64,000 bases of DNA, from positions 6,583 through 70,582 of the forward strand of contig CAISGE010000058.1 of NCBI GenBank assembly GCA_903884815.1, written 5' to 3'. A program made the translations under genes and the position numbers. The notes under the pieces are model-generated. The model made no database searches, had not been told where the DNA came from, and saw only the letters and a program-made list of their open reading frames with translations. Positions 1,806 through 60,717 of the stretch are shown piece after piece (the stretch's first letter is position 1; each line of letters begins with the position of its first letter). Source of the stretch: Candidatus Omnitrophota bacterium (GTDB lineage Bacteria > Omnitrophota > Omnitrophia > Omnitrophales > Aquincolibacteriaceae).

Positions 1806-1885
1806 GGAGGCCTATGAAGTCGGGGGCCTCAATAGGGAGGTATGAAAGTTAATTTAGAAGGCTTATGAAGTCACAAAAACTATGA
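1806..1885 (+). promoter_or_regulatory. leader with three tandem SD-ATG-AAG mini-ORFs (12, 8 and 6 codons); last stop overlaps the giant start (CTATGATG)
   Basis: The motif GGAGG-N3-ATGAAGT occurs three times, at 1806-1820, 1836-1849 (GGGAGGTATGAAAGT) and 1857-1871. uORF1 is 1814..1852 (MKSGASIGRYES). uORF2 is 1842..1868 (MKVNLEGL), and its TGA overlaps the uORF3 ATG. uORF3 is 1865..1885 (MKSQKL), and its TGA at 1883-1885 overlaps the ATGATG of the giant ORF at 1882-1887. The giant start itself has no SD. Confidence 0.35.
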
Positions 1886-13800: not shown

Positions 13801-16800
13801 TTGATCGAAGCGGAGATCCGGGAGAGTCCTCTCGAGATGTGGGAGGGCATGAAGGAAAGCTTCGTGAGTGGAATCTATGAGGGTCGTAGGGTGTTACCGG
13901 ATGACCTGGTTTCTTTTCTAAAAGCGTTCGCGGAATCCCATTTAAAACTTCTGACGTCTGCTGCGGCACCCGGCGGAGAATCCCAAGTGCCGGAATCTTC
14001 GGAAAAGGGAAACATCCTCAAAAACATCCGCGCCATCCGCGACCATCTTTGGAAATTCTTTGATTCAGGGCAATATCCTGATCCCGAAATCCATAGAACG
14101 ATCCTTAAGCTGAATGCAATCCTTCGATCAGAATCGCGCACCCCTCCCGAAGGGAAGGCGCCCGGTAAGACGGTCTGGGACCGGGTCAAGACCGTGTTTG
14201 TCTGGGCTATGTGGATCACGGGCGGAGTCCTCTGTCTCGGAATTCCCTTGGCGGGGATCATTCTCTACCACTGGGATAAGGGGCTTTCGGGAGTACCGAT
14301 GGGGTTGTATCTCGGGGGCGCCTGTCTCGCCATAGGGGATTCGTTTTTCTTTGAGAGAATCGTGGAACGGTGGCAGAAGAGGATCACGTCCTATTTCGAG
14401 ACGCGCCTGATGCACTGGATGAGGCAGCATGAGCCCTCTTTGTGGTACTTGATCCTGAGTTATAAAACAGACGACGCGAAAGATCGTCTCCTGAAGATCT
14501 ACCGGGATAGGTTTTTCCGAAAATCCTCTTTTGAGAAATACATGAATGCCGTGAACAAAGTTCTGGAGTCGATACGTGCGGTCCATCCGGATTTGTGGGT
14601 CGACGTCCTGGCCTTGCTGAACGGGGGATTGCTTTACGATGAGTATGGCCGCGGGGAAAAGGACATGGGGATTGTTCGCGATCTCGTGACGGATGACATC
14701 TTGTTTGGCGATCTTAAGCCAAAGCCTGAGGCGCCGGAGGTTGTCGAGTTTATTGCTTCGGGTCTTTCAAGGGATTTTGGGCGCATAAAATTCGGCGATG
14801 ACCCTTTCTCGAGCACCGACCATGAGAAATTCATCTCTCTCTTTAACCGTCTCCCCAAGCACTTTGGGATCAGGGTTCTGCGGTTTGGGAAAAACAAATA
14901 TGCTCTGGGGGTCAGCCTCATTGAGGCGCACGGTCCCGAATACCGTTGGCCTCTGATAAAGCAATGGGGGAAAATCTTCATTAACCGGACGGCACTCGCC
15001 ACCTCTCTCGTCGAGACGCCAAGTGTGAAGCCCACGGCCATTTCCAGGGAGAGAGAAAGATTTTCCCCTGACCGTTTGCCCGAGTCCGTAAAGTTGAAAG
15101 AAGGAAACACGAGGCTGGTCTACTTAGCGTTTCCTTATCCGGATGAAGGGAACTATCCTTCCCCGGACGCTCAAGGGCCGCTTTATCCGCGCGGTCTACG
15201 AGGGCGGCCTTCGGAGAACATTTCGGACCATATTTTCTTTGAGCTAGGGGACGGGAAAATTCTCCCGAAATATAGCACGGACGATGAGGCGCCGGCTTAT
15301 GCCGTCGTGATCGATCTCCCCGCGGACCTGGCAAAACAGGCCCTTCTGATGGAAGCCCACGATGTGCCGGCGCCGGACGCAAAAGGTCAATTAACATTCG
15401 ATCCCGCTTTCGCGAATTTGGCGTTTTTGTTTTCCGAGAAGAGCAAACCGAACATCATCGGAGTGATCGACCGCGCGACGCTTGAATTCATACCCAATGA
15501 GAGTCGCTCGGAAGCGCGTCCCGGTGTTGTTCGTGATCCTCAACAGGTTGTTGCTTATGTTAATGAAATCTTGAAGCGTTTTCCGGATTCTCTGGCTTCA
15601 GAATGGAAGGCTCGTTTAGAAGGATTCAGAACATTCAGCCCCGCTCCGGGGCGCTATGAGGGAATGGTTGCTGAGTTGAAAGAATTCACAGTAGCGCTCA
15701 ATGATAGCGTCATGAAGGCGCGCGGGTCAGCAGGCTTTCAAGCGGTTCTTCCCGTCGTGATCGATCTGGACGGTTTTGTGAGCGCGCTTCCTCGCTCTGA
15801 GATGCACAGTTCTACTTCTGGTTCCGGGAATCAGAGGTTGGATGCCTACGAGACGAAGGGCGGAAGGACCACCGTCGCGAAGAAACTTTTGAAGGTCGGG
15901 CTCTGGGCGGGGCTCCCGCCCGTGATTGCCGCGGTGATCGTTAATTTTGCGGCTCTTTTCTATCTGAAACACCACGAGGAGCGTGTTTATCCCGGGGACG
16001 GTTTTGAGCTGGGTGTTTATCCCTACGCTCAAGTTGACGGTAAGAATATTTTCTACGTTTCCAACGGGCCGCTCTACGGAGAGAGCACGAAAATAAAAGG
16101 GGAGCGTTTCAATATCGGCCTCGTCCGCTCCATGGGGAAAACAATCAATATCTACAACCCGAACGCTTCTGGCAGCGCACAGCAAAAAGCCATCTTTCTG
16201 AAAAACAAATCGGGCGAGATCCGCATTATTGCCGCGGCTGATTTTTCTGCCGAGAAATACCCCTTAGAAGATTGGCCGGATGCGTTCCAGGCAGGTCCCC
16301 TGGCCGTCATTGACGGAAAGATCAATGAGAGTATTTATTCCTGGAATGAATCTCATGACGGACGCAAGGTTTTTATCGGCGTGGACGCCACCCAAAGAAA
16401 TTTGTTCGTGCTTGAGCTCTATGGGAATGATGCCGCCGGCTATACAGCTCCCGGGACGAAAGAATTTAAGATGAAAGTCGAAAGATTTGTCCACGGTCAC
16501 GCGATCCTCGACGGCATGTGGACCGATGGCGGCACCATGGGTAAAGAACCGGGCCAAAGGAAGCCTGTCACAGTCCTTGGCGGAAAGCTCATCCCTCAAG
16601 CGGGTCCTCGCAACGAGAGACGCTTGAATCCTATTGATTCAAGCAATTCCAAACGGACATGGATCCTGGGTTCGGTCATTGCGGCTCTGGCGATTGGAAT
16701 GCTGATCGTTAAGGTCGTGGAGCCTTCTTCCTCTGAGAAAGAAGCGGAACTTCGCAGGAACGGGGAGCACAGTCAAACAATCGTGCCGGCCCCTTTGGAA

Positions 16801-19800
16801 GGCGGACCTCAGGTGACTCGGAGAGCGCCGAGACAGGTGAACGTCCCCTATGATGACGCGACTTTGCAGGAGATCAAAAAAGTCAAAAAAGACGTCGCTT
16901 CGCAGTTCGGCATGACGGTTGACGGCTATCCCAGGCCGTTCAAAAAATTTCTCGACGAATATCTGGGGAGCCGGTATCTCGCGAATCCCAAGGATCCACT
17001 CCTCCTCACGAAGGACCTCCCGACTTTGTGCGAGCATGCGTTGAAGAATCACCCGCAGCTGATATGGGAACCTGGAAATCGTCCTCTCCCGAGAGCAGGC
17101 GAGATCGTTATCGAAGAAAACATTTCAGAGTTAGAGCCCCTTCGCCTTTCGAACGGAGACATCATACAGACCGCTATCCCCACGATCTACCTCAACTACA
17201 AGGAAATCATGCCATTGGAAAATGTCCCGGAGCCCGGGGGTCCACGCTCTGAGATGCGGCGGAAGCGGGAGACTCTGACTTCCGCGTCGAATCCCGAGGA
17301 GATCGTCGCCGGAGGACGCGTTGCGTCGCGCCGGGAATTTCAAAAAGCCATTGAAGGATCAGCGCGAACAAAGATTGTAGGCCCTCAATGGATGCGCTAC
17401 CGGAAACTTGAAAATGCGGCGGACGCTTCACGGTTTTTGAAAAACGGCAAAGTTGATATCCTGGAAACGAAACAGTGGGGAGGACCCTATATTTCTTCCC
17501 CCAGCCCCGGATTCCTTCATCCTATTTTCGCGGATGTCCGCGAGAAGACCCATTTGGTGGTTGAGTTGACGCCGTCTGCTGTGGAGAAAGCGGGCTATGT
17601 GGGAGCTCCGGGGGCCTCCGGAGAATTTTTCCTGAGAGATGTGGAGCGTGCCTGGATCGTCAAGGATGAGGAGAGTGGCCGGATCCGCTATCAGGAGGTC
17701 CGGCTCGTGGGCGATAGGATGCTGGCCCGGGCCATCCGTTACTGGATACAGAACTGGAAAGAAAAAATTACGGAGATCCTGGACTCGTGGCGGAAGGTCC
17801 TTGGGGAGGATGAAATGAACGCCCTGTTTGAAAAACTCAAGGCCGAGGGGGGGATTCCTAAAGGTATCACGATCGATGCGAAAGCGGATGCGGCGGGAGG
17901 GGTGCTGATCGATATCCGTCGTAGAACCACACGGGATCGGCCTGTGACCCTGCTTCGGTTTAAACCGCAGTGGATCGCGGATCCGGAGGACAAGGATATG
18001 CAGATCCAGGTCCCCGGTCAGCGGATCACGAGGATCTTCGCGGGTGGCGGGAAGCTTTACGTGGAATATTTAAGTTCAAGGGAGCTTTTCCCGGAACGGC
18101 GCTACAGGGTCGTGGATCTTAAAGATCCTCGTGAGATGAAATCGGAAGATCTGAGCCAGGCAGAACTTGGCGCGAAATCTCCGGAGATCCTGAAAATCTT
18201 CAGGCCTTCGCGTCAGGGATTCAAGAAAATCTATTCTGAAAGTAAGAAGCACCAACTCTGGGTGGAAGCGGTCCTTGGGTTGGGTGCTGTGGGCGCCTTG
18301 TTCGACCGGTTCCTGACCCCGGAAACCGTCAACGCTGTTGTTCTGTGGGCCAAGCCGGTCTTTTATGATCTTTATAACAAAACCAGCAGGGATCCTGTCT
18401 ATTTTTGGATGGGGGCCTACCTTGCATTCGCGATCGGTGGTCTTGCGTACCACGCCGGTCTCTTTGGCGTGATTTTTGAATATATTCGTCTGCCATTTGG
18501 ATTGATGGCCATGGGGATCAGATTTGTCGCGGCAGGCGGAGCGTACCTGCTTGAGACCATCACCTATGTCACCCCAATTCCGGATAGCCTCTACGATCTC
18601 GGGTTCATGAACCGTTCTCCGGACGCGGGGGATATTGAAAAACTGAGATCGACCGAGTCAATGTCCGGTAATCCTGCGGGAATACTGGGAATTAAGACAG
18701 GTGGGGAGCGCTCCGAGACGCGCTTGCAAGCCAATCTTGCGATCTCGGATGTCGAGGCCTCCCAACTTGCTCGTGAGGTCAGCAATATCCTCGGGCAAGG
18801 AACAACCCTGCTCAGAAAAGAAACCATTAAAATCAACGATCAATCCTTTGACGTGGAAGCGACCGAGGAGATGATGCCTTTAAATAATGAGGAAATATAT
18901 AAGCAGCCTGTCTATGCAAACAGAATTACCCGGATCGGTTCTTTCGTGTTTGTGATTCCGCCGCATGGTGAGACCCGAGAGGAAATCGAGCAACAGTTTG
19001 CAAAGCTGCGCAAGAGTTCGGATCTGTTCCGGAATTATGAGGGGAATGTTCTGGTCGTGGAGGGCACAGCGTTCGATTACGCGGACGAGCACATGATTCA
19101 TCCGCAGACGCGTTTTGCGATCGCTCTTATGCTGAGTGAGGCGAAGGCGTTACGGGGCGAGGTGTTTGAAGATTACGGCACGGGTCCCGGGATTCTTTCG
19201 CGGGTGGCGTTCCGTCTGGGTGCCAGAAAAGGGATCATGTATGAAAAGGAACGCGGCGCGCTTAAACTGGCGCGAGCACATCTCAACGCTGAAGGGCTGA
19301 GGGAGGATACGGATTTTTTCATCGTGCGGCAGGATCTTTTGAGCACGCAAAACGCCGGTTCTTTATTAAAACGCCTTGGGAGGCTCTTCGGTTTCGGCCT
19401 TCAGAGGGATGCCGAACTGCGGGACGCACAAAACGAAGCCAGCATCGCGCTGATCAATATCGGACCTGAGTACGGGGAAGTGAATTATCAGGCAGACAGC
19501 CTGGCCTCAAGTCATCCCGGGGAGAGGCTTCTCATCAACACGGGCTATCTGCTCGCCGAACCCGCCGATGTGGCGATGCAGAAACAGCAGATAGAGAATG
19601 CGACCCTTTTGCTAAAGAAGGACGGTTGGAAGGTGGATCGGGTTGAGTTGCCGGAAGGCTATGCCGCATTGGTGGCTCGGCGCCAGTCTCAAAATCAGCG
19701 AAACGAAATGCGAGCGGAGAAGTATGCAGTGAAGATACCCGGAGCTGGAAACGGCCGGACCACGGAGGTCTGGTTGGATGGCGAGTTGGCTTTGGCATTG

Positions 19801-22800
19801 AGGAATATGCCGGCGGGAACGTCGGTCACTCTTTGGGGAAGTGCCGCCGTTGCGATGCTTCTGGCGCAACGGGGCCCGTTAGCGGCTCATCGATTAGGGG
19901 ATTTTATCGGAGATGTGGATCTCGTTATCCATCACGGGGATGAATCAGCGATCCGGTCTGCTTTCCTGCGTGCGGGGGAACAGGCTCAAGAGAAGCCTCT
20001 CTCCGTAAGTATCCATGAACCATCACTGCTCGATAAATTGCATAACACAATGCATTTTACAGCTTACGATTTGCCTCTTCGCATCACTGTGGGAGAAGAT
20101 CGTCAGCTTACGATCGAATTTGACACCCAGCCTGCAACGGCGACGGGGCAGGAATCTCGGGAACGTGATATTTCTGCGTATCTCGAAGATCTGCTCAATA
20201 AGAGATTAGTGACACCGTGGCCCGCTATGAGCATCGAGGATGCTATCCGGGGTGTGCGCGCGATGCTCGTGTTCGGTCTCATGCCTGATAAAGTCGAGCT
20301 CCAGAAGATAAAGGACGTATTGACGGTCGAGGAACCATGGATTGGAAAATCTGCTTTTCTCCGGGACCTTGATCGGGCGGGGAGCGACGGGTTGGCACTT
20401 TTGAAGGATCAGGGATTGCTGGATACCCGTCTCAAAGAGTGGCTTATCGGCCGCTCCCCCACAGAGTTCCCCGAGAAGCGAAACGAAATGAGGGTGGTTG
20501 AAGCAGCGCAGATCGAGAATTTACTCCGGGAAGAGAGACATCCGTTTGAGTATTACATTGAAGACCCGGTGCTGGCTTATCCGATCGACGAAGCGCCCGC
20601 CTGGATCCTCGATCATCTGAAGCTAGCGAATATGTTGGTCTTTCCGCAGACCCAAGGTGCACCTTTCACGAATCCCGCAGGCGAAAGCCTGGCCGGATTC
20701 TATGTGATGCTGAAGTTCCGCAACGGCGATATCAATCCGTATCTCGTGGGGCATGATTATTTTGAAAGGGAATATTCGGGGGAAGAAGATCCCGTGAAGC
20801 GTGAGAACTTTATCGACGACAACGGTTTGAAGACGGGCGGGCTGGATTTTGGGGAAAAAACGCCGCTTTTCCAGAAACGGCATCCCGTGAAACTATTCAA
20901 GATGTCGGAACTCCCTAATTACCCGGTTTGGGAGAACATAAGCATTCGACATCCCAATGGCGTCCTTCAGGAAAAACCGGCCGGGGAAGACGCCTATATT
21001 TTGCAAGATATGGATGGAAAGATCGAAATGACACCGGGGGACATTCCCTCCGGTTACCAGTCCCTTAAGCTGATCAATCAGGACCGGTTGGCTCTCGAGG
21101 GATTCACCGTGGGGAAACCGCTGACAGATATGGCGATCCAGGGGGTTAAATCCTTGGGTCAGGGAGGATCCTCACGGGTCTATCCCATGAAGGGAATGCC
21201 CGGATTCGTTTTGAGGCTTCCGCTCCCGGGGCTGAGTGTTTCCGAAATAAATCAGGCGGAGGAGGAACTTTTTACTCAAGCGAAATTAATGGAGCTATTC
21301 AACAAGGACGGCGGGATCGAGACGCTGTCGGCTTTGGATAAAATGGGAACAATGGACAATGGGACACTCTACATGGTGCGTTCGGGGCCATGGAAGGCGT
21401 ATACGATGGAGAGTGGCGAAGCGGAGAAGATCCCTCCCGTTGAGAAAGTCCGGATCCTCAGGCTGATGCTGGAAACGCTTGCGTGGGTCCACCGCCATGG
21501 TTTCCATGGAGATATCAAACCTGAAAATATCCTTGTCGAGGAAGGGACCCTGGAGCCCAAGTTGAACGATTTTTCGGCCGTTCGGGCTACGAATATCCAT
21601 GACCCGGGGAGCTATCGCATTGTCGGAGAAACCGCCGGCTATTCGCCTACGGATATTTTGGGGCCTGTTTATGAGGACTTGCCGATAAATCCCGCCTGGG
21701 ATATTCACGCATTTGCGCGGACGATCCTGGCGATATTGAGTGCCCCCCCGGAGGCCGACACGGGATATAGCCGTATTGAAAATGTGATCTGGCGTATGAA
21801 AAAGTACGGCAATTACAAACTTTTCGAAGCGGATCTCCTGGGAGATCTGCTCGGTGAGACACTGCCCGGGATCGGATTAAGCCCCGTGTGGGATCAATTT
21901 CTCATGTCGACGATCGCATGGAGGTTTGTTTCCTCCGCAAGGTCGCAAAGGCAAACCGTTCCCAAGGCTCAATGGCAGGGGGTTCTGAATCAGGCATTGT
22001 CGATCAGGATGCGCCCCGAGGATTATCAGCCCTACCGGGCGAGGCTGGATGGGGAGACTCAGGCGCTTGTCGACAAACTACTGCGCGGTGAAACCATGAC
22101 CGACAGGGAGATCGTTCATATAAACCGCAGGGTTTTAGAGCTCTCTTCTCCGGACCAGATCGCGAAGGCCCCAAAACCAGAGGTGGACGGGAATGTGGAT
22201 CTCTTCCTAGAAAAGATCCCGCAGGCCCAGAAGGAGGCCCTGAGGCCGCTGATCCAATTGGCGCTGACGCGGGGTTACGAGGTTCTTCCCGAAGGCTACT
22301 CCGCGCAGAAATTCCTTGAGGAATTTGATGCGGCGACAAAGGTGCTTTTCCCGGATGGAGCGCCCTTCGTCCACGGGCTCAGGCAACGCGCCGAGATCCG
22401 TTCCCCCGAACAGATCCCGGAATTAGTGCGGGGCCAGGCCCCAACAACTTCTGGAATTAAAGAGGGTGAAAACCGCGCCGAAACGCGGACGAGCTCTGTA
22501 ATGTCGAGGCGCAATTTTTTGAAAGGGGCAGTAGTAGCCGCTTCTGTAGCTGCTCTTCCAACCCCAGGTTTGGCTTTTAGTAGTTCTCCGGCTCAAACCA
22601 CGGCCAAAGTTATAGTGCCTATTTTGCCGGAGAACGGATTTTACGATGATGAAGGGTTTTCCTTTGTTGATATTTATGATATGGATCGAAGTGCCGATTC
22701 TGCCCAGGATCGTGAGAAACTGTACGCTCCGCGACTTTATGCCTATAAAAATGGGGAAGCCTATCGAGTTCTTGAGAGTGGCGAAAGAGTCCGGTCGGAT

Positions 22801-25800
22801 TTTTGGACGGAAAATATTAAAAATAGAGGTCGCTTTACCTCTCTGCCGATTTTAATTCCGCAACATATCAAAGAAGCCGGCCTGTTTCCAAGTAAGGCTG
22901 AGACAGACGATGAGGATTGGTTGCTCGCGCAAGTGCGGGATCATACCCGCTGGGCCGCCGGTGCGGTTTATTCTCTTTTGCGCAGCGCATCGCCAAGGAT
23001 AATGGAAAGTCTCACGGATCTCATGGCGGCTGAAGACCCGTCGCCGAAGCTTGCTATCGCCCGCGAATTAGGGCGAACGGATTGGTGGCGGTCGGATGCC
23101 GGGGAGTTCTCCGACCGTTCCCGTATAGTTGGTCTCAGGTCGCAGAGGTTCACGGACGCATATATCGATTACGTCAAACATCATGGCCGGGGGAAAGACA
23201 TCTATGGTCACGATGCTGTTGAGTATTTTTCTCGGTACCTCAGGAACCGTTTTAAATACACTCAGGCGGGGTCACGTTATGTGATAGGTCCCCGTTCCCA
23301 TTTTTACGCAACGAGCCAACCCGGTCTTACGCCTACCAACATCAAGGCCCTTATGGATATCATATTTAAACAAAAATTCTATGAGATCATTCCGGCCCTG
23401 TACTTCAACGACGTTGGCGGGTTTCTGGGAGAGTTTTCGACGAAGGAGAATTCGGCTCCCTTGGACACGAAAGCAAGACCTGAAGGAATTCAGCGCGAAT
23501 ACGGCGTTGCCCCCGAAGAATGGGAGGTATGGTTTTTGAGAGGGACATATGAGGGGTGTCATTGGATGAGAAACAATGGTGCCAAGGAATGGGAACAGGA
23601 GTGGTCGCGAGTGCATGATAACGTGTATTTTGATGAGCGGTCTGACCGGAATCGGGATGACGTAATCAGGCTGGTGAAAAATCCGGATAAATCCATGGAA
23701 GTCAGGGAACTCGCGCTTGAGCTAACCGTGATGAGCGGAAGTGTCCCCTCCTTTGATCTTTTGGATGATATCCTTTCGGGCCGGCAGTGCCCCGAACTTC
23801 AAGATACGTCCCGCCGGCTCAATCAGATTTACGCTTTCCGCAGGCCCGGCGTCACTGACCACGTCCTATTCTCTGTTGCTAATAATCATTGGGTCCAGGG
23901 GATCCTTGCGGTGGGCGGCGGCGCGGCTGTGTATTTTATCGGGCGCAAGATATGGCGGGATTTGTCGGACAGGGGTTCGGGATATCCGAGGACCCGAACC
24001 ATCTGGGACCGCCCCCCTTTCTCTGAGCGGCTCCGGCGATGGGCTGAGAATTTGTGGATAGACGCTCGAAATAAGGTTGCTGACCTGTGGAATAAGGCGG
24101 TCGGAGTTGCTGAAATAATTAATCAGAAGTTCTTGAAAATGAAACTGCAGGCGTTCGCTTTTTGGCTGCAGCCTAAAATGTTTGCAAGAGAACGTGGCGT
24201 ACCTGCTTTGATCGGGATGGCGGCCTACGGAATTTTTGCCGTTAGAAATCGGATCGCTGAGTTTAACCGGTCTGTAAGTCATGTTTTTTACCGTTTCGCT
24301 ATTTCCGGATGGGTGAACCGGAGGGTAAACATATTCTTTGATCGGAATCAACCCGTCCAAGAGCAGATCCAAGGGGCCTTTAACCGGTTTGCCGGAACAT
24401 TAGGCGAGCATCCAGAACCCACCTTTATCCGCGTGACCCTTCCCGAACTTAAAGAGAGAAAAAAGTTTAGGCGCGGATTTGAGCAGAATTCGCTGGATGT
24501 CGCAAAGATCCTGATGCGAAGTTTTAAATATTTTGAGAAAGATTATATCGCCTTGTTGAAGCGTAGCCCCGAAGTGATCGAGTTTGTTTTTCTGGATGAT
24601 CCGAGTAGTCCCGCAGGATGGGTTCAGATGGACGCTTCGGCCGTTCATATCAATCTGCATGGTTTGGATGTTGCAAAATGGGGTACCGATATCGAGAAGG
24701 TCAGCGGGACCCTGAGGCATGAGATTTTCCACAAACTTGATTTTCATCATCGCGTTTTCACACAGCCTGAATGGTTTCAAGCCGTGCGTGAAGCCGGTTT
24801 CGACGGTTTTTTTGACGGCGACAAGTACCTTCCTCTTGATGAAATAGAAAGGAGCACGGGATTCGTGCCTGCCGCTTCAGACACAGAAATGCCGGGCATT
24901 CTCCAGGGTGACGGCACGGTTGATCTATTTCAGGTGGTTGATGCCGATGGCAACACCGTCCAGCGCGGTTGGCGGGACTTTGTCGATCATGTTTATGCCC
25001 GGATGCGCAAAGCGAATTATCGGTCTTGGGTGCATCAGGGCGCTGACGGGGAAAAACGTGTTTATACGAATCTGATGACTTATCTGATGGAATCATTCTT
25101 GTTTCCTCAAGAAATGAAAACTTGGGAAAAACGCGTGGAGGAGGAGGGTTTCAAGGTTCACGTGACGTTCTCCGAGCCGGAAGCCTATCGTTTTTTTACC
25201 CCGCATGAATATTTGGCTGAATTTGCCATGGCCTATTTTGAGAAAGGTGCAGACCGCAAAAAGATCGTCCAGGAATGGGCCGGCGGAGCTTACTTGGATC
25301 GATTACTTCAAAAAATCATGAGCGAGAAAGCGGGTATTACGCTCGCGTCAGATCGCCGGACAGAGGCGCAGATTTCAGAGAAGGCCGTGACCTCAGAAAA
25401 GAGCCCCGCTCAGGGAATGCCCGGGGAGCTCCTCGCTGTAGGTCGTCCCGAGATCCGTTCCCCCGGTCAATTCCCGGAATTAGTGCGGGTCCGGGCCCCA
25501 ATAACTTCTGGAATTAAAGAGGGTGAAAAACGCGCCGAGACGCGGAGCGGGAATGCAGGGAACCCGGTGACGGAAGAGGCAATCCCGGCGGAGGCTTTTA
25601 AAAAGCTTCACGAGTTGATCGATGATCCAAAAGTGACGGGCCAGTATCGCGTCCGGCACAAGTTCCTGGACGGTGAGAGCGTTCTCGGCTCGGGACACAT
25701 GTTCCCCGTATTTATGCATCGTTATTCGGATGAAGAGACCATCAAAACCGCCTGTCTCCGGGTGGGGAGTCTGCTAGTCGTTTCAGACGAATATTTGAAT

Positions 25801-28800
25801 GTGGAGCCGGTGAATGAAGAGCTCGATAGACTGAAGCACGAATATCCTTCACTGCGCGTTCTGAGAGTGGAGGGCGAGATTGCATTCAGTATGTTTTTAA
25901 AGCCGCTTTTGGGCGCAATGTTGACGCAGGATTTCAAGGGAAAGGTGGTCGAGGATATCGGGACTGGAAACGGCGTTCTCATGCAGGCCTCCTCGGCGCT
26001 TGGCGCGTCGGGGACGGTGGGGATCGATACGGATCTGGAATCTCTTGAGAAGGCGGATGCAGATTTGAAACGGGCAGGGAAGAAGGGCATTCTTCTCAGA
26101 AAAGATCAGTGGAAAACGGACCCTCCGGGTCTGAATGAAGGCCTGGATTATGTCTTAGTGGAGGCGGATCTTGCGGACTGGTTCGCTCCCGAGAACGCCA
26201 AAGCCCGAACGCGTATCCTGGGAGGGAAGGAGGCCGATATCCGATTGTCGAATTTCGGTTCCTGGCCTGATTACGCGACGCTGGAGGACGTGCTTCGGGG
26301 GGCTTCGGCAGCGCACGACACGCTTGTCGCGGATTCGACTTCGAGAAATATTCCTGTCGTGATGTTGGGAGGATATCGTTTGGGATTTTCCGGCTTTGAC
26401 GTCAATGGTAAGGAGGTGGATAGAACCGCCGGATCTCCCCTCGCGACATTCTCTGAAAAAGGATGGAAGACAGCGTTGTTCGCTTCCGGCAATCTTCAAG
26501 CCATCCTTGCGACCCGGTCTCGCTCGGAGACGCGGGGGGAACTGAAGTTCGATCCAAAGATCGCTAGTAGTGTTTCGCCTCTGCTTGGCATGATGACGGG
26601 ACAAATGCCGGTCTGGTATTTCCTGATGGCGCTTGGGATCGATCCGGCAGCAGTGACGAGAGAAGATCTTCTTTCTTTGGGTGGCGGCGCCTCGGCAATC
26701 AGGCTAGCGCAGAAGCCGATGCTGGGTTTGTCCGTCCCGGAGCTGCAGTCTGCGGTACTCGATACTCTCAGACAGCTGACGAGTCATGACGAAGGGATCT
26801 TCGAAGCCCAAAGTCCACCGTATCTCAGGATCGAAAATGGAAGTCCTGTCGCGATCGTGTGGCCTGTGAGTGAGGGGACCGTGACTTATCCCTTTGAAAA
26901 ATTCACAGAAGCGCTTCAGAACGGGAGTTTCCCGACCGTTTATTCGCCCTCTGAAAAAACCTCTTCTTATGTGAAGATCGCAGTCCGCCAAGGGGTGGTT
27001 CAATCGGGCGTAGCGAAGATCTTGGGGATCGACGTGGCCGGGAAGGTTGCTGCGGATGTGGGTTGCGGATCAGGAGTGGTCAGTGTGGAGATGCTGAAGA
27101 AAGGAGCCGCTTCAGTCAGAGCCCTGGATATCAGTCTTCTCAAGATGATGAATACGCTGATGTCGGTGGCCCTCGACAAGGAGACGGCCCCGCTTCTTGA
27201 CCGCCTGAGACTTTTCCTGAATGAAATGCCTGCCGCGGATTTTTATGCTTTTAACGCGCCCACTCTGGGCGGAGAGACGCAAACGACGAGGGCCCTTTCA
27301 GAATCGATTAAAGCGGGCGAACCCGCCAATTGGGGGATAAGCGACAAGGTGCTAAAAGAAAAGATCCTGGATCAAGCATTTCAAAAGGCGAATCCGGGAG
27401 CGAAGTTCCTGCTGAGGATCTTTTTCAGGCGCCATTATGTTCCTGGCATTGAAGTGGAAGGCTTGGATATATTGGATGTCGACGAACTGCCGTCACTCGA
27501 GAAGCTTGTCGCGGATTCGGGGTGGAAGATCCCCAAGGGCCAGCCGGTGATCGCCGACGATCGCGAGGGACGCAGGTTTACCGCGCAGGCAACTTTTCTT
27601 CTCGACCGCTCCGAGATGCGAAAGATGGTCGTGTCTGAAAAATTTGCCGTAATGCTTCCGGGCTTGGAGGACAGGCACTATGCCTTCCAGATAGAGCGAA
27701 TGCCGCACTCGATCGGCAAATATCAAGAGGCGCCGGAATCATTCATTGTCCGTTTGTACGAAGGGGACCAGGAGAACTCATATGCGGGTATCTCCTTTAT
27801 GGCTTTTCCGTACCAAAAAGTGCTTTATCTGGAGAACTATGGTCCGGACTTTCCGGTTCTGGGAAAGGGGGCGCCCCGGTTAGGTCCCGGGCGCGCTTTG
27901 CTCGCGGAGATCCTGAAACGACTTCCCGAATACGATGGGTTCGATCTTATTGCCAATGGCTCACCGAAAATACGGGAGTCCTTCGCCAAATTCGGCAAAG
28001 GGTTGAATTTTAAGATGAAAGGGGAAATTACGGACGCTTACCGGGAAGAGCTCATCGCACGGGCCGGCTGGTTGCCGAAGAATACGAAAAGAGTGCTCAT
28101 GCATATCTCGACTGGGGAACTGATCCAGTCGGGATATTTAACGCCGGATCAGTTCGACAAATATTTACGTATCGCGTCTCACATGAACATGGTCGCGAAA
28201 ATCTCGCTCAAAGATCTAGAGTCTGACCGTTTGGAGGGCAGCACTGAGACGCGGGCGGAAAAGAGGGACTATTATGAGGTCCTGGGTGTTGCTAGAGACG
28301 CATCCTACGGTCAAATTAAGAAGGCGTACCGGAAAAAGGCTCCGAAGGTTCACCCGGACACGAATCCCAATGACCCGAAGGCCGAGGAAAAATTCAAGGA
28401 ACTCGGGGAGGCGTACGAGGTTTTATCGGATTCCGATAAACGTGCGGCCTATGATCGCTATGGTCATAGTGCCTTTACAGCGGGAGGTGTCACCAGGAGA
28501 GCGGACCCCTACGCGGAATTTAATGCCGCAATGCAAAAAGCTGAAGCAGAGGCAAGAGCCGAACGCGAACGTCAAGCTCAACAAGCTTACGCGAAAGCCA
28601 TTGACGCGTTATTGGGTCTGGCGATCGTCGACGGGATGGATTTTGACGCGGCTCTAAAAGAGTTAAGGCGACTGGAAGGAGTTTTCGGGAAAGCTTCTGA
28701 GCAATGGAGCGCAAAGGACCTTCAGCCGCCTCAGGCTATGGAACAGCTTGCCAAAAAACGCGAGGCGGTGCTTCAGGCTCAGCGGAAAGCGCAGCGGGAT

Positions 28801-30921
28801 CTTGCCGACGCGCAAGCGGCACAAATGCGTGCGGCGATTGGGAGTGCCTCCAACCCGCGTGAGGCGCTCGCATCTCTAACAGTGCTGAATCCCGCCGGAA
28901 ACAAGAAGCTTGGAGAATTTCAGATACAAGGACCCGCGGCAGATGTCTACGGGGAATTGTTTGAACAAGCCAAGAAAGCCGCAGATGCCTATGAAGAACA
29001 AGTGGAGGGAGAACTTAGGAGCCTTACGCAACAAGTAGAGGTGATAGGAAAAGGGATTTCTCCTGAGATGACGCTAGCCCAACTATCCGAAGCAGAAGCC
29101 ACCCTCCAACCTTTTAAAGCCAGGGCTGCGGAAATTTCTCGCGGGAGTGGAGATGCCCATGCAAAGATGGAAGAAGCACTTAAGCGCGTCAGATTTGTTA
29201 TCCACGACCGGATGGTCCCTTTGCTTAAGGTGGAGCTTGACGCATTGCAAGGGAAAATCAAGGCCGTTGGTTTTGTCGCCCGCGAAGGTATCTACGCGGT
29301 GATTGATGGCTTGGAGAGTGACGCCAGGGCCCTTGAAGAGATGCTTGGCGGTGATAAATATCATTTAGACAAGATATGGTTTGCCGGCGCACACGTTGAT
29401 ATCGGAGAGTTGCGAGTGGCTTTACTCCGCGGTGAACTTGAGGCGCTGCAACAGAAAATAAAAAATGTTGGCTTTGAGCCCAAGGAAGAAGTGTATACAG
29501 CGCTTGATGGGCTGGAGACGGACGTTCGAACTTTTGAAGAGAAGGCTCAAGCGGTTCTTAAGAGTAACGAATATTATTTGGGAAAGATCTGGTTTGCCGG
29601 CGCGCAAGTGGATCTTAAGAACACACGAGTAAATCTGCTGCGCAGAGAGCTCGAAGTATTGCAGGGGAAAATCAATGCTGTGGGGTATGAGCCCACGGAA
29701 GGAGCGTATGCCGCGCTGGGTGCTCTGGGGGATGATATTCGTGCACTCGAAGAGAGGGCTCAAAGGGTCCTTAAGAATGATACTATTTATCTGAGCAAGA
29801 TTTGGTTCGCCGGTGCGCAAGTCGATCTTAGGAAACGACAAGTTTATCTCTTGGGAAAAGAACTGGAAGCCATCAAGGACCGGGTTTCGAATGGCGATCC
29901 CGGAGTGCTTGAAGAATCGGTGACGGAACTTGAAGCGAAAGCGAACCGGGTGCTTCAAGAAAATCAGTTCTATTTCGGGAAAATTCCGTTTGCAGATGTT
30001 CGTTTTCATATCAAGCAAAGGCGTGAACGGGTGACACCGGAGGACGATCGCCCCCGTCGCGGCGAACTTCGCGTGTCTGATGCCGTGCTCGTCGGGGGGG
30101 CGCTCAAACCGGGAGGGAACCGGGAGATCCCTGAGGCGGTGGCGGTGAAGATCACGACGAAAAGCATCGAGGAGCTGGAGGCTTTCATTTCATCCGTTGC
30201 AAAAGCGGCGGAAGCGGAGGCTCTGGCGATGGGCGCGGCGGAAGCCTTGCCGAGTCAGGAGATGGCCGATGCATTCAAGCAGCATGGCGATAGCGTGGAC
30301 GCAAAATTCCGGGATCTCTTTAAGGCCTACGTTCAGAAACCGCACGCGACCGGTGACGGGACTTTATCGATCGGGTTAGTGATGGACCCGGATGGAAATG
30401 ACTTGTTCTTTAAAGCCTTGGTGGCGGCGCTTGCTGAGTCTCAGTGCCCGGTTGAGTTGCTGGGCCTTGCCGATGCGCTCAATAGTCCGGAATTCCAGCC
30501 ATTGATCAAGCAAAAGCAGATCAAGCTGCGTCCTCTTCACCCCCAGGATTTCAGAAAACCCATCGGGATCCGGGGGGGGAGTGAGGCCCCTGTCGCGCTG
30601 GGTGCCTCATTCCAGAATGTTCCGATGAACGAAATGTTCCACAAGGTATCGCTGGACCTTGGAGATGGCTCCATAGATGCGTTGACGAGCGCGCATTCGA
30701 AGAAGCTTTTCGCCTACGCGCCGGTTTTGATAGGCTTGTTTGTCCAGGAGGATGCGTATCAGGAGCAGAAGCCGGAGAATAAAGCCGCTTATCTCCAGCA
30801 CCGGCTGGAAGAGGTTCTCGGAATACCCATCAGAATAGACACGAACAACGGTGCTTTTTCCATCGTCGCCTCCGAGGTCCAGGCCTATATCGCCCAACTC
30901 GCCGTTGGCACTGCTGCCTAA
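1882..30921 (+). CDS. giant modular membrane-associated multi-domain protein (9,679 aa) with N-terminal Sec signal peptide
   Basis: Uninterrupted 29,040-bp ORF, which chance cannot produce. N-terminal signal [37 protein letters not shown]. Multiple recognisable catalytic motifs and TM segments are detailed in the sub-features below. Antisense ORFs on the minus strand are treated as shadows. Confidence 0.85.
3119..3146 (+). repeat. heptanucleotide SSR (GGTCAAC)x4, in-frame inside giant gene 1
   Basis: Four perfect tandem copies of GGTCAAC encode VNGQRSTN. A change of one unit would frameshift the 29-kb ORF. Confidence 0.8.
3335..3362 (+). repeat. 7-nt periodic repeat CCNTACG x4 (ccgtacg ccttacg ccttacg ccagacg)
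   Basis: Read directly from the sequence. The 7-nt period is independent of codon periodicity. Related GTACNCC x3 tracts lie at 3634-3654 and 3763-3783. Confidence 0.7.
4562..4608 (+). repeat. 47-bp perfect direct repeat, copy 1 (encodes [15 protein letters not shown])
   Basis: ccgaatcccgcacgccaaaagggaaggcggttgtgtctgagacgccg is identical at 4562-4608 and 5432-5478, 870 bp apart, within coding sequence. Confidence 0.85.
5432..5478 (+). repeat. 47-bp perfect direct repeat, copy 2
   Basis: Identical to 4562-4608. Confidence 0.85.
5700..6080 (+). other. GHKL/HATPase_c-type ATPase domain #1 within giant gene 1
   Basis: N-box IHNAVDA, G1 box [10 protein letters not shown]2 box GGFGVGRAQ. Confidence 0.6.
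6780..7190 (+). other. histidine-kinase-like HATPase_c domain #2 (no recognisable H-box upstream)
   Basis: IIDNAVSY (N box), DLGAG (G1), GGTGIGL (G2), [11 protein letters not shown] (G3). Preceded by a coiled-coil segment, but no SHELRTP-type phosphoacceptor motif was seen. Confidence 0.6.
7290..8000 (+). other. HAD-superfamily phosphatase domain, trehalose-6-phosphate-phosphatase-like
   Basis: Motif [14 protein letters not shown] (DxDGT) followed by KVIILTN (motif II Thr). FxDYDGTL is the T6PP signature. Confidence 0.55.
8700..9900 (+). other. DUF185/NDUFAF7-like SAM-dependent methyltransferase domain (tentative)
   Basis: GNHFNTAPQ...FGKLVAEQ...EPAAGDGQL...[14 protein letters not shown] resembles the family's SNEFFDALP motif. 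Confidence 0.4.
12960..13110 (+). other. HD-type phosphohydrolase motif region (tentative)
   Basis: [10 protein letters not shown] ... [13 protein letters not shown] gives an H...HD pattern. Confidence 0.35.
16000..16570 (+). other. NAGPA/phosphodiester-glycosidase-like domain (tentative)
   Basis: Segment [24 protein letters not shown]...[14 protein letters not shown]...[30 protein letters not shown]...[14 protein letters not shown] resembles the NAGPA family. Confidence 0.35.
19160..19330 (+). other. class I SAM methyltransferase motif I region
   Basis: [38 protein letters not shown] (DxGxGxG motif). Similar cores lie at 25951-25983 ([11 protein letters not shown]) and 27052-27081 ([10 protein letters not shown]). 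Confidence 0.5.
21100..21780 (+). other. Ser/Thr protein-kinase-like catalytic domain (possibly atypical)
   Basis: Gly-rich loop [10 protein letters not shown], catalytic loop [19 protein letters not shown] in place of DFG, and [10 protein letters not shown] as a subdomain-IX-like stretch. Confidence 0.55.
22390..22493 (+). repeat. about 100-bp linker repeat, copy 1 ([32 protein letters not shown])
   Basis: About 90% identical to 25448-25551 ([32 protein letters not shown]). Both end in the RAETR linker motif. Confidence 0.75.
22501..22581 (+). other. internal twin-arginine (Tat) signal-peptide-like segment at residue 6874 of giant gene 1
   Basis: In-frame [27 protein letters not shown]. 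The Tat consensus S/T-R-R-x-F-L-K is matched exactly and is followed by a hydrophobic core and an A-x-A-like site. Confidence 0.6.
24700..24760 (+). other. HExxH zinc-metallopeptidase-like motif
   Basis: [15 protein letters not shown]. Confidence 0.3.
25448..25551 (+). repeat. about 100-bp linker repeat, copy 2
   Basis: See 22390-22493. Confidence 0.75.
28267..28464 (+). other. DnaJ-type J-domain embedded near residue 8,800 of giant gene 1
   Basis: [66 protein letters not shown] contains the HPD tripeptide and is near-collinear with the E. coli DnaJ J-domain. Confidence 0.85.
29215..30010 (+). repeat. tandem 210-bp (70-aa) coiled-coil repeat array, about 3.8 units
   Basis: The unit Y-x-x-KIWFAGA(Q/H)VD-x5-LLRxELEALQxKIxxVGxEPxEGxYxALxxLxxDxRxLEExAQxVLK recurs with the KIWFAGA motif at 29383, 29593 and 29803. 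A degenerate KIPFADV follows at 29980. Confidence 0.8.
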
Positions 30922-30953
30922 TTATCATTAATTTCTTGATTGGAAATTAGCGT

Positions 30954-30997
30954 CGCCCTTGTCGGACATTAATGGAATGAAATAAACGACAAGGGCG
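30954..30997 (+). terminator. 11-bp stem / 22-nt loop hairpin 33 bp after the stop of giant gene 1
   Basis: CGCCCTTGTCG (30954-30964) pairs with CGACAAGGGCG (30987-30997). The large loop is atypical for an intrinsic terminator. Confidence 0.25.
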
Positions 30998-31013
30998 CAT
31001 AGCCTCCCCCTAG

Positions 31014-31046
31014 CGACCATTTCAACTGCGCTAGATGAAATGGTCG
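31014..31046 (+). terminator. perfect 10-bp stem hairpin between the giant genes
   Basis: CGACCATTTC (31014-31023), 13-nt loop, GAAATGGTCG (31037-31046). The nearest T6 run is about 28 nt downstream, so this may be a terminator or a regulatory structure. Confidence 0.3.
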
Positions 31047-31248
31047 AATGCATCTCTCAGATGGCCCATTTTTTAGTAAATCTAAAAAATATCTGCAACT
31101 CATTCCACCGTAATTACTTATGGTGTCCATCGAATTTGACACCTATGGGAAGTTATGTTACCTTTATAATGAACATTAAATAAGTGTTTAGTTCTGTCTC
31201 TCGTATAGAGAGAATTAAAATACCAGCCCAAAGGAAGTTACCGTTTAA

Positions 31249-52805: not shown

Positions 52806-52883
52806 GTCCCCATCGTCTAGGTTGGTCTAGGACACCAGGTTTTCATCCTGGTAACAGGGGTTCAAATCCCCTTGGGGACGCCA
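52806..52883 (+). tRNA. tRNA-Glu (anticodon UUC), CCA encoded
   Basis: Cloverleaf read by eye: acceptor GTCCCCA/TGGGGAC, anticodon stem CCAGG/CCTGG with loop TTTTCAT (anticodon TTC), T-arm AGGGG-TTCAAAT-CCCCT, discriminator G, CCA. Nearly collinear with E. coli tRNA-Glu. Confidence 0.9.
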
Positions 52884-58671: not shown

Positions 58672-58878
58672 ATGAGAATAAAAAAGTTTTTTTCAGTGCT
58701 GCTAATGCTTGTTCTTTTTACCACCCCGGCTTTTGCATATCATGATTTCGAGACCGTTAGTGATGCCCAGGATCGGCACCAAGCGGAGCATTACGAGCAG
58801 AGACAAGCGAACGGTGGCAATGAACCTTTGGGTGGATATTCCGATAAGCTCGGCGATTCGTCTGGTCGCAGCAATTAA
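58672..58878 (+). CDS. small secreted peptide, paralog A (signal peptide plus 45-aa mature region)
   Basis: AAGGAGG immediately upstream. Signal peptide ...LLMLVLFTTPAFA. The mature part YHDFETVSDAQDRHQAEHYEQRQANGGNEPLGGYSDKLGDSSGRSN is near-identical to paralog B. Confidence 0.6.
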   Translation: MRIKKFFSVLLMLVLFTTPAFAYHDFETVSDAQDRHQAEHYEQRQANGGNEPLGGYSDKLGDSSGRSN

Positions 58879-58922
58879 AATATGATGGATGTTGTCAGAC
58901 AATCTACGAATAAGAGGTATCG

Positions 58923-60491: not shown

Positions 60492-60692
60492 ATGAAAAAG
60501 GTTCTATTTGTAGTAGTTGCTATGTTGGTTATATCAACCCCAGTTTTTGCATATCACGATTTCGAGACCGTTAGTGATGCCCAGGATCGGCACCAAGCGG
60601 AGCAATATGAGCAGAGGCAAGCGAACGGTGGGAATGAGCCTTTAGGTGGATATTCCGATAGGCTCGGCGATTCGTCTGGTCGTACCAATTAA
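60492..60692 (+). CDS. small secreted peptide, paralog B
   Basis: AAGGAGG 5 nt upstream. Signal MKKVLFVVVAMLVISTPVFA. The mature region is about 93% identical in nucleotides to paralog A. Confidence 0.65.
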   Translation: MKKVLFVVVAMLVISTPVFAYHDFETVSDAQDRHQAEQYEQRQANGGNEPLGGYSDRLGDSSGRTN

Positions 60693-60717
60693 AAGTTAGC
60701 TGAAATTATTTCAGCCA

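Follow-up and report, generated by a model that had tools for sequence, protein, structure and literature searches.

The giant open reading frame p1, found in a 64,000-nt stretch of DNA (the window) from an uncultured freshwater Omnitrophota bacterium, carries a bona fide J-domain whose residues appear suited to docking on DnaK and triggering it. The domain is the N-terminal part of the last cargo module (aa 8792-9392), itself the second-to-last module of the protein. Its most likely role, judged from sequence, would be to bring the cell's own DnaK locally to the C-terminal part of p1, which is predicted to be cytoplasmic. The fuller proposal, in which a functional class C J-module acts as a built-in, membrane-localised DnaK recruitment site on the giant, is one that we hold with evenly balanced confidence. 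Coordinates of the features discussed are collected in Table 1.

The J-domain and the protein that carries it

The initial annotation had described a 66-codon segment (28267-28464), containing an HPD tripeptide, as collinear with the J-domain of E. coli DnaJ. The two indeed align without gaps, at 62% identity across 66 residues. A search with the Pfam family PF00226, proposed there as a check, returned a significant match spanning all 63 profile positions, with E=6.2e-27 and a score of 93.9 bits (gathering score 27.8), and the resulting core at aa 8796-8858 agrees with the annotated position near residue 8,800. The nearest solved structures were those of the E. coli DnaJ J-domain (5NRO_B, 1BQ0 and 1XBL; E ~5e-27), recovered in a single ungapped alignment of 77 residues; 5NRO_B (E=5e-27) is this domain crystallised with DnaK. 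Similarity to class A DnaJ spans the native DnaJ N-terminus to the first residues beyond helix IV. The four-helix J fold is implied by identities of 62-82% to solved or genuine J-domains, and a single-sequence AF2 model (pLDDT <50) places helices at model residues 9-15, 25-32, 47-61 and 65-75, in keeping with the positions of helices I-IV. A scan of all six frames with a custom J-domain HMM recovered this one J-domain in the whole window (nt 28261-28470, E=4e-41).

The DnaK-contact residues of E. coli DnaJ are R22, K26, R27, K48, K51, H33, P34 and D35, of which the last three form the HPD motif essential for stimulating the Hsp70 ATPase (Mayer 2021, PMC8215388). The corresponding positions in p1 read K, R, K, K, G, H, P and D, with H8824-P8825-D8826 aligned to H33-P34-D35. 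The basic docking positions 22, 26, 27 and 48 thus keep their charge. Position 51 is a glycine; this residue and K28 are common to p1 and its nearest genuine DnaJ relatives, for which G is the consensus at 51. Two substitutions, M30P (beside the HPD loop) and R36T, were seen in none of the 120 nearest J-domains.

The remaining parts of a canonical DnaJ were not detected. G and F make up 12.5% of the 40 aa following the J-domain, as compared with the at least 25% within 40 aa by which a G/F region is recognised (Malinverni 2023), and neither the zinc finger (PF00684) nor the DnaJ C-terminal domain (PF01556) had a Pfam match in aa 8576-9679. Lacking all three, p1 is a class C J-protein by definition. 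NCBIfam models of DnaJ match p1 over their first ~80-110 positions only (74-115 bits against cutoffs of 338-619). The best NCBIfam match was to TopJ, in the J part of that model; this and the other named J-protein models, again matched in the J part only, scored far below their cutoffs (TopJ 115 against 300 bits, DjlA 27 against 162, CbpA 58 against 403).

The reading frame of p1 is unbroken across 29 kb in the ORF list. The mass computed from its 9,679 aa bears out the roughly 1 MDa estimated at the outset, and the description of p1 as a giant membrane protein is upheld by an N-terminal signal peptide together with at least five further strong hydrophobic segments. The 1 MDa chain comprises ~20 enzyme-like modules. 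About ten distinct Pfam families were matched along it, among them HATPase_c (two domains), HAD, Methyltransf_28, HPr-like, NAGPA-like, PrmA-like methyltransferases, Pkinase, a Tat signal and DnaJ; an HExxH motif lies at aa ~7612. An Omnitrophota origin is indicated by flanking proteins, which fall into clusters of at least 90% identity named Candidatus Omnitrophota or Omnitrophica, and by homologs of the p1 N-terminal domain, which carry Omnitrophota names. The exact p1 sequence was absent from the searched protein collection. A p1 allele of 9,567 aa exists, and three loci (L001-L003) that cover the first 9.4 kb of p1 only are nearly clonal, differing by 2 mismatches or by one 12-nt deletion. 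Neither a dnaK nor a grpE gene was found within the window.

The giant belongs to an Omnitrophota family with a common plan, in which the two ends, an N-terminal domain and a C-terminal module, are conserved, whereas the cargo modules between them vary and are split by linkers of the form [RS]xE[TMS]R. In p1 a Sec-type signal peptide (aa 1-35, ...TWA/DP) stands at the start. The N-terminal domain is 24% identical to the N-terminus of the neighbouring paralog p2 (E=4e-23) and matches P0051, the only complete smaller family member, with i-E values of 6e-68 and 8e-111; it contains invariant QDAH and EG residues. No known fold or family was detected for this domain, and its identification as a ChaN/Tiki-like hydrolase proved unsupported, with no detectable hydrolase relatives. 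The C-terminal module matches that of P0051 at E=1.7e-5 against the whole library and at i-E=8e-13 in direct comparison. The J-module is absent from both P0051 and p2, and can thus be regarded as optional cargo.

Table 1. Features of the p1 locus, in positions of the window
Feature	Position (nt)	Strand	Basis or remark
Giant ORF p1	1882..30921	+	9,679 aa, 1,079 kDa (1.08 MDa); modular, multi-enzyme, membrane-anchored; carries the J-domain
Conserved family-defining N-terminal domain (aa 12-674)	1915..3903	+	Homology to p2, P0051 and Omnitrophota contig-end fragments
Two PrmA-like SAM-dependent methyltransferase modules (aa 7889-8213, 8219-8575)	25546..27606	+	Pfam PrmA, Methyltransf_25, MTS
Cargo module directly upstream of the J-module (aa 8581-8786)	27622..28239	+	Between linkers RSEMR (aa 8576) and STETR (aa 8787)
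Linker STETR (aa 8787-8791), [RS]xE[TMS]R variant	28240..28254	+	Motif census; overlaps RAEKR; directly precedes the J-domain
J-domain (aa 8794-8870; Pfam core aa 8796-8858 = nt 28267-28455)	28261..28491	+	PF00226, E. coli DnaJ structures, BLAST extents
HPD tripeptide (aa 8824-8826)	28351..28359	+	Codons CAC CCG GAC, read directly
Predicted helical region after the J-domain (aa 8871-9109)	28492..29208	+	Low-confidence AF2 model; without G/F region
Four tandem ~71-aa repeats (aa ~9100-9392), ends KIWFAG or KIPFAD	29209..30057	+	Self-comparison, periods 71, 71, 61
Degenerate linker RGELR (aa 9393-9397), closes the J-module	30058..30072	+	Motif scan
Conserved C-terminal module (aa 9398-9679; detectable homology aa 9489-9676)	30073..30918	+	phmmer against P0051 C-terminus
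Second giant ORF p2, 7,071 aa	31249..52464	+	p1 paralog via N-terminal domain; same linker motif; no J-domain

Origin of the domain and construction of its module

The J-domain appears to descend from the N-terminal part of a regular class A DnaJ. Its nearest relatives are housekeeping dnaJ genes, located in grpE-dnaJ and hrcA-grpE-dnaK-dnaJ operons, to which it is 78-82% identical in amino acids and 39-47% identical at third codon positions (pS 0.81-0.88, pN 0.15-0.17). Since synonymous sites are saturated while pN is only ~0.16, comparison with these housekeeping relatives indicates purifying selection on the domain. It is also no more divergent from the nearest DnaJ J-domains (mean identity 77%) than these are from each other (79.5%).

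Such values are relevant to a deflationary account of the domain as a fragment of a housekeeping gene, captured by a recombination-prone and hypervariable giant-gene locus and carried along without selected function. Hypervariable Omnitrophota loci often carry housekeeping cargo, according to the abstract of Nielsen & Lui 2026; a serine recombinase is encoded just downstream of p2, and the patchy occurrence of the J-module in the family, the shorter p1 allele and the two unique substitutions could all be accommodated by this account. However, saturated synonymous sites and low pN, found against every sampled relative, argue against recent capture or decay. The HPD and DnaK-contact residues have been kept (the glycine at position 51 being that of the nearest DnaJ), the frame is uninterrupted over 29 kb, and the databases hold no near-identical donor: none closer than 83% identity was found among 5.8 billion clusters, a collection in which the organism's flanking genes recur. 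We therefore regard the account as very improbable. The taxon-named near-neighbours of the domain are all Verrucomicrobiota and none are Omnitrophota, with about a quarter of the database proteins bearing a name. Recent foreign acquisition from any sampled donor was likewise rejected, as the J-region matches its surroundings in GC content and its third codon positions have reached saturation against every near relative.

The annotation had placed the J-domain deep within the giant, between RxETR linkers. Rather than being buried, it heads the last cargo module; the linker STETR does immediately precede it, but none directly follows, the next being the degenerate RGELR. It is thus the 600-aa J-module, and not the 66-aa domain, that is flanked by linkers. 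The position of RGELR is equivalent to that of RSEQR, the linker before the homologous C-terminal module of P0051. At the other boundary, the J-domain starts 4 residues past its linker, matching the start of a stand-alone DnaJ ('TR/' as against 'MA(T)'). Behind it, the module of ~600 aa continues with a helical region and four repeats of ~71 aa (Table 1); AF2 modelling of the whole module from its single sequence gave a pLDDT of 47, too low for the model to be relied on. Beyond the J-domain, the module had no homologs among 1.84 billion (1.84e9) representatives. Searches of genome and metagenome contig collections, with the C-terminal region (either including or omitting the J-domain) and, for synteny, the p2 N-terminus as queries, recovered no relatives of the J-module or of p2 in other genomes. 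The four repeats, themselves orphan sequence, are possibly the client- or partner-binding part of the module.

Two PrmA-like modules lie upstream on the same TM-free stretch, bounded by the linkers RAETR (aa 7884), RSETR (8214) and RSEMR (8576), and are followed by a cargo module (aa 8581-8786) which has no Pfam match at E<=1. Several database matches annotated as PrmA+DnaJ turned out to be frameshifted high-GC dnaJ-prmA gene calls that resemble p1 in the J-domain alone, and a PrmA link was discarded.

The motif [RS]xE[TMS]R occurs at 19 sites in p1 and at 7 in p2, as against 0.9 and 0.8 expected. Codons vary between the sites, so it is the linker peptide that is selected. Taken together, the over-representation of the linkers, the conserved ends around variable cargo and the native-like starts of the modules give an indication of how such giants are put together and, possibly, processed, and may matter more than the J-domain itself.

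Processing would be central if p1 were a polyprotein, that is, an in-frame chain of whole genes cut at the linkers to free a class C J-protein of ~600 (or ~890) aa. The linker excess and the recurrence of the motif in P0051 are in keeping with cleavage, as are modules that begin like native N-termini and an internal Tat-type signal, including its Met, right behind the linker RAETR; such a signal normally needs a free N-terminus. Cleavage of giants by their own peptidase domains has already been raised by West-Roberts et al. Against this, the Tat match, at 22.0 bits, falls just below the Pfam cutoff of 22.7. A search for protease domains in p1 found none, nor was any protease of suitable specificity identified; the Rce1-like CPBP domain of p2 is circumstantial. 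Conserved linkers may also be mere flexible spacers or docking sites, and we consider the polyprotein reading unlikely.

Topology and proposed role

A J-domain requires the ATP and Hsp70 of the cytoplasm in order to function. No strong TM segment occurs after aa 5557. By our estimate, based on strong-segment parity, the NAGPA-like domain would lie outside and the last ~4,100 aa in the cytoplasm. SAM-dependent methyltransferases and a protein kinase share this presumed-cytoplasmic stretch with the J-domain. The parity could be reversed by four weak hydrophobic segments (aa 4134-4152, 5461-5479, 7421-7441 and 8235-8253), and topology predictions for giants of this kind are described as inconsistent or unreliable (West-Roberts et al.). 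A cleavable signal peptide would place the N-terminal 4,000 aa, with their ATP- and SAM-using domains, outside the cell; such an extracellular part does not fit a simple resident-enzyme picture.

On the best explanation, a class A DnaJ contributed a copy of its first ~78 residues, which was fused in frame directly behind an inter-module linker. There it heads a cargo module of ~600 aa, after which only the conserved C-terminal module follows. If the estimated topology holds, some 4,100 residues at the C-terminal end (~4,100) would be cytoplasmic and held at the inner membrane by upstream helices, and their J-domain would dock on ATP-bound DnaK of the same cell through its basic helix II and HPD loop. 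ATP hydrolysis would then be triggered and DnaK clamped onto a nearby polypeptide. Candidate clients include the giant's own segments, neighbouring copies of it, p2, or proteins held by the downstream repeats. The role would be one of maintenance, assembly or remodelling of the megaprotein rather than that of a co-translational folding aid. At residue 8,796 of 9,679, the J-domain is made after 91% of the chain and could thus give no help in cis to upstream modules during their synthesis. An earlier suggestion of chaperone-assisted folding of the giant is weakened to this extent. Precedents for the proposed role exist among class C J-proteins that are tethered to a membrane or dedicated to one structure, such as DjlA, DjlB and DjlC.

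Another reading takes p1 to be an effector. The bacterium is presumably episymbiotic or predatory, and the giant or its released modules may enter a host or prey whose DnaK/Hsp70 is then hijacked by the J-module. Several observations are consistent with this: a Sec-type signal peptide is followed by ~4,000 aa of cytoplasm-type domains (HATPase_c, HAD, SAM methyltransferase, HPr-like), Omnitrophota giants have been linked to a host-dependent lifestyle in the literature, and a class-A-like J-domain should suit a generic bacterial DnaK. The Verrucomicrobiota names of all named near-neighbours could reflect acquisition from, or mimicry of, a host, and HopI1, a type III effector acting on plant Hsp70 (PMC8150971), provides a precedent. 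However, Pfam searches of p1 and p2 detected no translocation or secretion apparatus, no pore-forming region and no autoprocessing protease, and segment parity places the J-module in the cytoplasm of the producer. The Verrucomicrobiota signal is also weak, given the small fraction of named proteins, and may merely reflect PVC relatedness. Delivery of p1 as an effector is accordingly a doubtful proposition. A combined version strikes us as quite improbable. In it, p1 is a secreted or surface-exposed train of genes, whole proteins being fused through conserved R-S-E-T-R-type linkers that serve for processing or docking; the modules, a host-like J-domain co-chaperone among them, are released into or onto bacteria that act as host or prey, and the J-module takes over the DnaK of the victim. 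If true, one prokaryote would for the first time be seen to hijack the Hsp70 of another, and the Omnitrophota giants would gain a first functional handle.

The J-domain in p1 represents a new architecture for a well-known domain and not a new kind of system. These giants are among the largest proteins known, and a selectively kept J-domain may mark, from within the protein, the compartment that the C-terminal third of p1 occupies, because it works only where Hsp70 and ATP are present. Stimulation of the DnaK ATPase, moreover, offers an easy first biochemical assay for a giant protein.

Comparison with known systems

The closest counterpart of the domain itself is the class A DnaJ J-domain (E. 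coli residues 1-78), with which p1 shares the full PF00226 profile, the HPD motif, the basic helix II, K48 and the N-terminal start. Identity ranges from 62% (E. coli) up to 82% (DnaJ of the PVC group). Differences include the missing G/F region, zinc finger and DnaJ C-terminal domain, the location at residue ~8,800 of 9,679, and the substitutions M30P and R36T. In its proposed use, the domain resembles those of DjlA, DjlB, DjlC and Mycoplasma TopJ, where an add-on J-domain likewise brings Hsp70 to one place or assembly from a tether at the cytoplasmic membrane; however, these are proteins of 270-900 aa with one function, in contrast to the 1 MDa and ~20 enzyme-like modules of p1.

To our knowledge, sacsin (DNAJC29) is the largest J-protein described, and p1, at 9,679 aa, is about twice its length. 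Sacsin (520 kDa) is modular, with GHKL/Hsp90-like ATPase regions and a J-domain near its C-terminus (PMC8584178, PMC9880540). The layout of p1 is similar, with two HATPase_c domains and its J-domain close to the C-terminal end; the HATPase_c domains were identified at the level of the Pfam family only. Sacsin is, however, eukaryotic, cytosolic and without membrane segments, and has no homology to p1 outside the shared domain families.

HopI1 of Pseudomonas syringae shares with p1 a J-domain located C-terminally beside a repeat region, and engages Hsp70 away from normal proteostasis. It is small, secreted and active on a eukaryotic Hsp70, whereas no feature found in p1 supports delivery into another cell. 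MARTX-like autoprocessed toxins and polyproteins contain a built-in protease and are cleaved between their modules; in p1 no protease domain was found, and the features seen were an HExxH motif in p1 and the Rce1-like domain of p2.

The overall construction of p1 is that of the Omnitrophota multi-enzyme giants (class 1 of Nielsen & Lui 2026; Archaeovorin-type of West-Roberts et al. 2023). It is like them in origin, in its signal peptide and TM helices, in enzyme domains tiled along mostly unique sequence, and in a content of methyltransferase, HATPase_c and HAD domains corresponding to 'module 1'. J-domains, DnaJ, Hsp70 and the linkers go unmentioned in both papers. With 9,679 aa, p1 falls just short of the 10,000 aa from which Nielsen & Lui catalogue proteins, and its 29 kb lie far under the >90 kb genes that West-Roberts et al. 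list; it is a smaller relative of the giants in both catalogues.

Identity and anatomy of the J-module

A 66-residue segment, in frame within the very long ORF of p1 (the first of two adjacent giant genes, the second being p2), matched the Pfam DnaJ family PF00226 over its whole profile (positions 1-63/63; E=6.2e-27; 93.9 bits against a curated cutoff of 27.8). Among all PDB sequences, the best matches were to the J-domain of E. coli DnaJ, including 5NRO chain B, in complex with DnaK (E ~5e-27), through a single, ungapped alignment of 77 residues; identity is 62% over 66 residues. The initial annotation had proposed a bona fide J-domain with an HPD tripeptide and called for the PF00226 search, which thus bears it out; its placement near residue 8,800 of a roughly 1-MDa protein likewise agrees with our coordinates (table below). 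A custom J-domain HMM, built from 80 distinct near relatives, detected one site only in the six frames of the window (E=4e-41).

In E. coli DnaJ, residues R22, K26, R27, K48 and K51 position the domain on DnaK, while H33, P34 and D35 make the catalytic contacts (Mayer 2021). The corresponding residues in the giant are K, R, K, K and G, followed by H, P and D. At position 51, the nearest genuine DnaJs likewise have G as their consensus, and the two closest share K28, where E. coli has L. Only two substitutions, M30P and R36T, were absent from all 120 nearest relatives, at positions which vary among real DnaJs (K30 and F36, for example, in the DnaJ of locus L007).

The linkers said to flank the domain were confirmed upstream, where STETR (overlapping RAEKR) adjoins it, but not downstream, where the next is a degenerate RGELR 530 residues on. 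The residues following STETR correspond to the start of free-standing DnaJs, which begin MA(T), and the module boundary therefore coincides with a native DnaJ N-terminus. Similarity to DnaJ stops at about E. coli residue 78. The G/F region is absent after the J-domain (G+F 12.5%, against a criterion of 25%; Malinverni et al.), Pfam found neither zinc finger nor DnaJ C-terminal domain, and the NCBIfam models for DnaJ, TopJ, CbpA and DjlA matched the J part alone, far below their cutoffs. By definition, this is a class C J-protein architecture with a class-A-like J-domain. Downstream lie approximately 240 residues predicted to be helical and four tandem repeats of ~71 aa, orphan sequences with no homologs among 1.84 billion representatives. 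A single-sequence AF2 model of the module (pLDDT 47) was too poor for use.

Coordinates of features in the window and in the two giant proteins
Feature	Window (nt)	Protein (aa)	Remarks
p1 ORF	1882-30921 (+)		9,679 aa; 1,079 kDa
N-terminal domain, p1	1915-3903
Strong membrane segments, p1		14-32, 4110-4128, 4674-4695, 4928-4946, 5514-5532, 5539-5557	first is signal peptide
NAGPA-like domain, p1		~4738-4855	weak match
Weaker segment pair, p1		6882-6900, 7337-7354	first is Tat-like
Example linkers	6199-6213, 11728-11742, 26521-26535, 28240-28254
Linker block, copy 1	22387-22488	6836-6869	34 residues
Linker block, copy 2	25444-25545	7855-7888	34 residues
Internal Tat-type signal	22501-22581	6874-6900	own Met
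HExxH-type motif	~24715-24750	~7612-7623
J-module		8792-9392
J-domain segment	28267-28464		66 residues
J-domain, custom HMM	28261-28470
HPD	28351-28359	8824-8826
RGELR		9393-9397
C-terminal region, p1	30073-30918	9398-9679
p1-p2 spacer	30922-31248		327 nt
p2 ORF	31249-52464 (+)		7,071 aa
N-terminal domain, p2	31285-33111
CPBP domain, p2	35674-40077	~1540-1635	PF02517
Serine recombinase	52843-54360 (-)		505 aa
Direct repeats	58706-58880, 60518-60694		177 nt

Relatives of the J-domain and selection

The nearest relatives are class A DnaJs of 370-390 aa, encoded in grpE-dnaJ or hrcA-grpE-dnaK-dnaJ operons; all those carrying a taxon name are Verrucomicrobiota. Against three of these, amino-acid identity is 78-82% and third-codon-position identity 39-47%, with pS saturated at 0.81-0.88 and pN at 0.15-0.17. 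These values sum over the giant and DnaJ lineages. Its mean identity to these DnaJs is 77%, compared with 79.5% among the DnaJs themselves. The database held no donor more than 83% identical, although this organism has been sampled there many times, and the GC content of the region blends into the surrounding gene. Taken as a whole, this evidence favours purifying selection on the J-domain and speaks against a recent or decaying capture. That the domain is a functionless passenger seems to us very improbable.

Conserved ends, variable cargo and linkers

The N-terminal ~600 aa of p1 and p2 are homologous (24% identity, E=4e-23). The corresponding domain (~650 aa, behind the signal peptide) recurs in P0051, a complete 2,070-aa protein (i-E 6e-68 and 8e-111), and on many Omnitrophota contig-end fragments, with invariant QDAH and EG motifs in the family alignment. 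AF2 models it with confidence (pLDDT 78), yet comparisons by fold, profile and Pfam yielded no match. The domain defines the family and is uncharacterised. An exhaustive phmmer search with p1 aa 8860-9679 against the 1.84 billion representatives returned two matches: a 98-aa fragment of the same gene and P0051, whose C-terminal module is homologous to p1 aa 9489-9676 (i-E 8e-13). P0051 shares three or four of the linkers, while no Pfam domain or J-domain was found in it. Since N-terminal domain and C-terminal module are common to p1 and P0051, the family consists of conserved ends that enclose a varying series of cargo modules. The C-terminal ~190-280 aa of p1 are homologous to the C-terminus of P0051 (5842-6428 on locus L009), not that of p2; this conserved module could serve as an anchoring or export signal.

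The inter-module motif [RS][SANTP]E[TMSVAI]R occurs 19 times in p1 (0.9 expected from composition) and seven times in p2 (0.8 expected), most commonly as RSETR or RAETR. Its codons differ between sites, and the peptide is therefore conserved rather than a DNA repeat; processing or docking might take place there. RSEQR precedes the C-terminal module of P0051, and RGELR is its equivalent in p1, which makes the J-module the last cargo module. Separately, one linker block, beginning R[AP]EIRSP[EG]Q[IF], is duplicated, each copy holding two motifs 29 residues apart. An internal Tat-type signal follows directly on an RAETR linker (Pfam TAT_signal, 22.0 bits against a cutoff of 22.7). This signal, with its own Met, and the DnaJ-like start of the J-module suggest that whole genes were fused in frame to form the giant. 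Cleavage at linkers, releasing a free class C J-protein, would suit such native-like starts, yet we consider it unlikely. The HExxH-type motif lies in a module without Pfam match, which could be a metalloprotease relevant to processing. In p2, an Rce1-like CPBP intramembrane protease domain (E=5e-11), surrounded by several TM helices, is the sole recognisable protease-family domain of both giants.

Other Pfam content of p1 comprises two HATPase_c domains, a HAD-like region, Methyltransf_28, HPr-like and NAGPA-like matches, three PrmA-like methyltransferases and a protein kinase. Downstream, p2 has Rce1-like, GlnD-type and PEP-utilising matches, and neither the custom HMM nor Pfam found a J-domain in it. 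The spacer between them is strongly AT-rich: its GC is 0.35-0.40, while the window as a whole has 0.52. This suggests that p2 has a promoter or regulatory region of its own.

The small flanking genes belong to 90%-identity clusters in which the named members are 'Candidatus Omnitrophota bacterium' and 'Omnitrophica bacterium RIFOXYB12_FULL_50_7', and the same locus recurs, almost clonal, in several stratified-lake metagenomes. Within this population (otherwise 2 mismatches in 11.3 kb), a 9,567-aa p1 allele with the same start is 112 aa shorter (ERZ27313089 k141_216006), and in another sample 12 nt are deleted in frame near nt ~6650. Beyond p2, at a distance of 380 nt, comes a large serine recombinase with Resolvase, Recombinase and Zn_ribbon_recom domains; its cluster is represented by a 414-aa form on other contigs. 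Such a gene fits a locus that is mobile or hypervariable. Further on, direct repeats, ~90% identical, stand among small ORFs of unknown function.

Compartment, possible roles and known systems

On a Hessa-type scale, no strong membrane segment follows aa 5557 of p1. The parity of the strong segments predicts that the NAGPA-like domain lies outside and the last ~4,100 residues, with kinase, methyltransferases and J-domain, inside. The weaker pair leaves this parity unaltered; it would reverse if the other weak segments added an odd number of crossings, and published topology predictions for such giants are unreliable (West-Roberts et al. 2023). The model also has 4,000 residues, in domains that depend on ATP and SAM, lying outside the cell. 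This is implausible for resident enzymes and keeps alive both the release of a cleaved J-protein and an effector, in which the J-module would hijack a host's DnaK by analogy with HopI1. The latter, too, appears improbable.

The likeliest role, to which we give an even chance, is that the J-module is a built-in, membrane-tethered recruitment site for DnaK. The targets would be the giant once complete, its neighbours, or whatever clients the repeat region has. The earlier idea of a folding aid fails in its co-translational form, as the J-module is unable to assist the upstream 91% of the chain.

DnaJ, J-domains, Hsp70 and the linkers are unmentioned in Nielsen & Lui 2026 and West-Roberts et al. 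2023, and the giant-gene papers searched do not mention the J-domain. For a class of proteins otherwise intractable, it supplies a marker of compartment and a simple assay, and its analysis revealed how the family is constructed, from conserved ends, cargo and linker. As add-on modules, J-domains are familiar from hundreds of architectures, and Omnitrophota giants contain hundreds of different Pfam families; the giant's J-domain is therefore not a new system. The content of p1 and p2 matches the 'multi-enzyme' class and 'module 1' of Omnitrophota long proteins (Nielsen & Lui 2026), as well as the Archaeovorin-type domain set of West-Roberts et al. 2023. The proposed membrane-tethered recruitment of DnaK would have analogues in DjlA, DjlC and TopJ, while p1 is analogous in overall design to sacsin.
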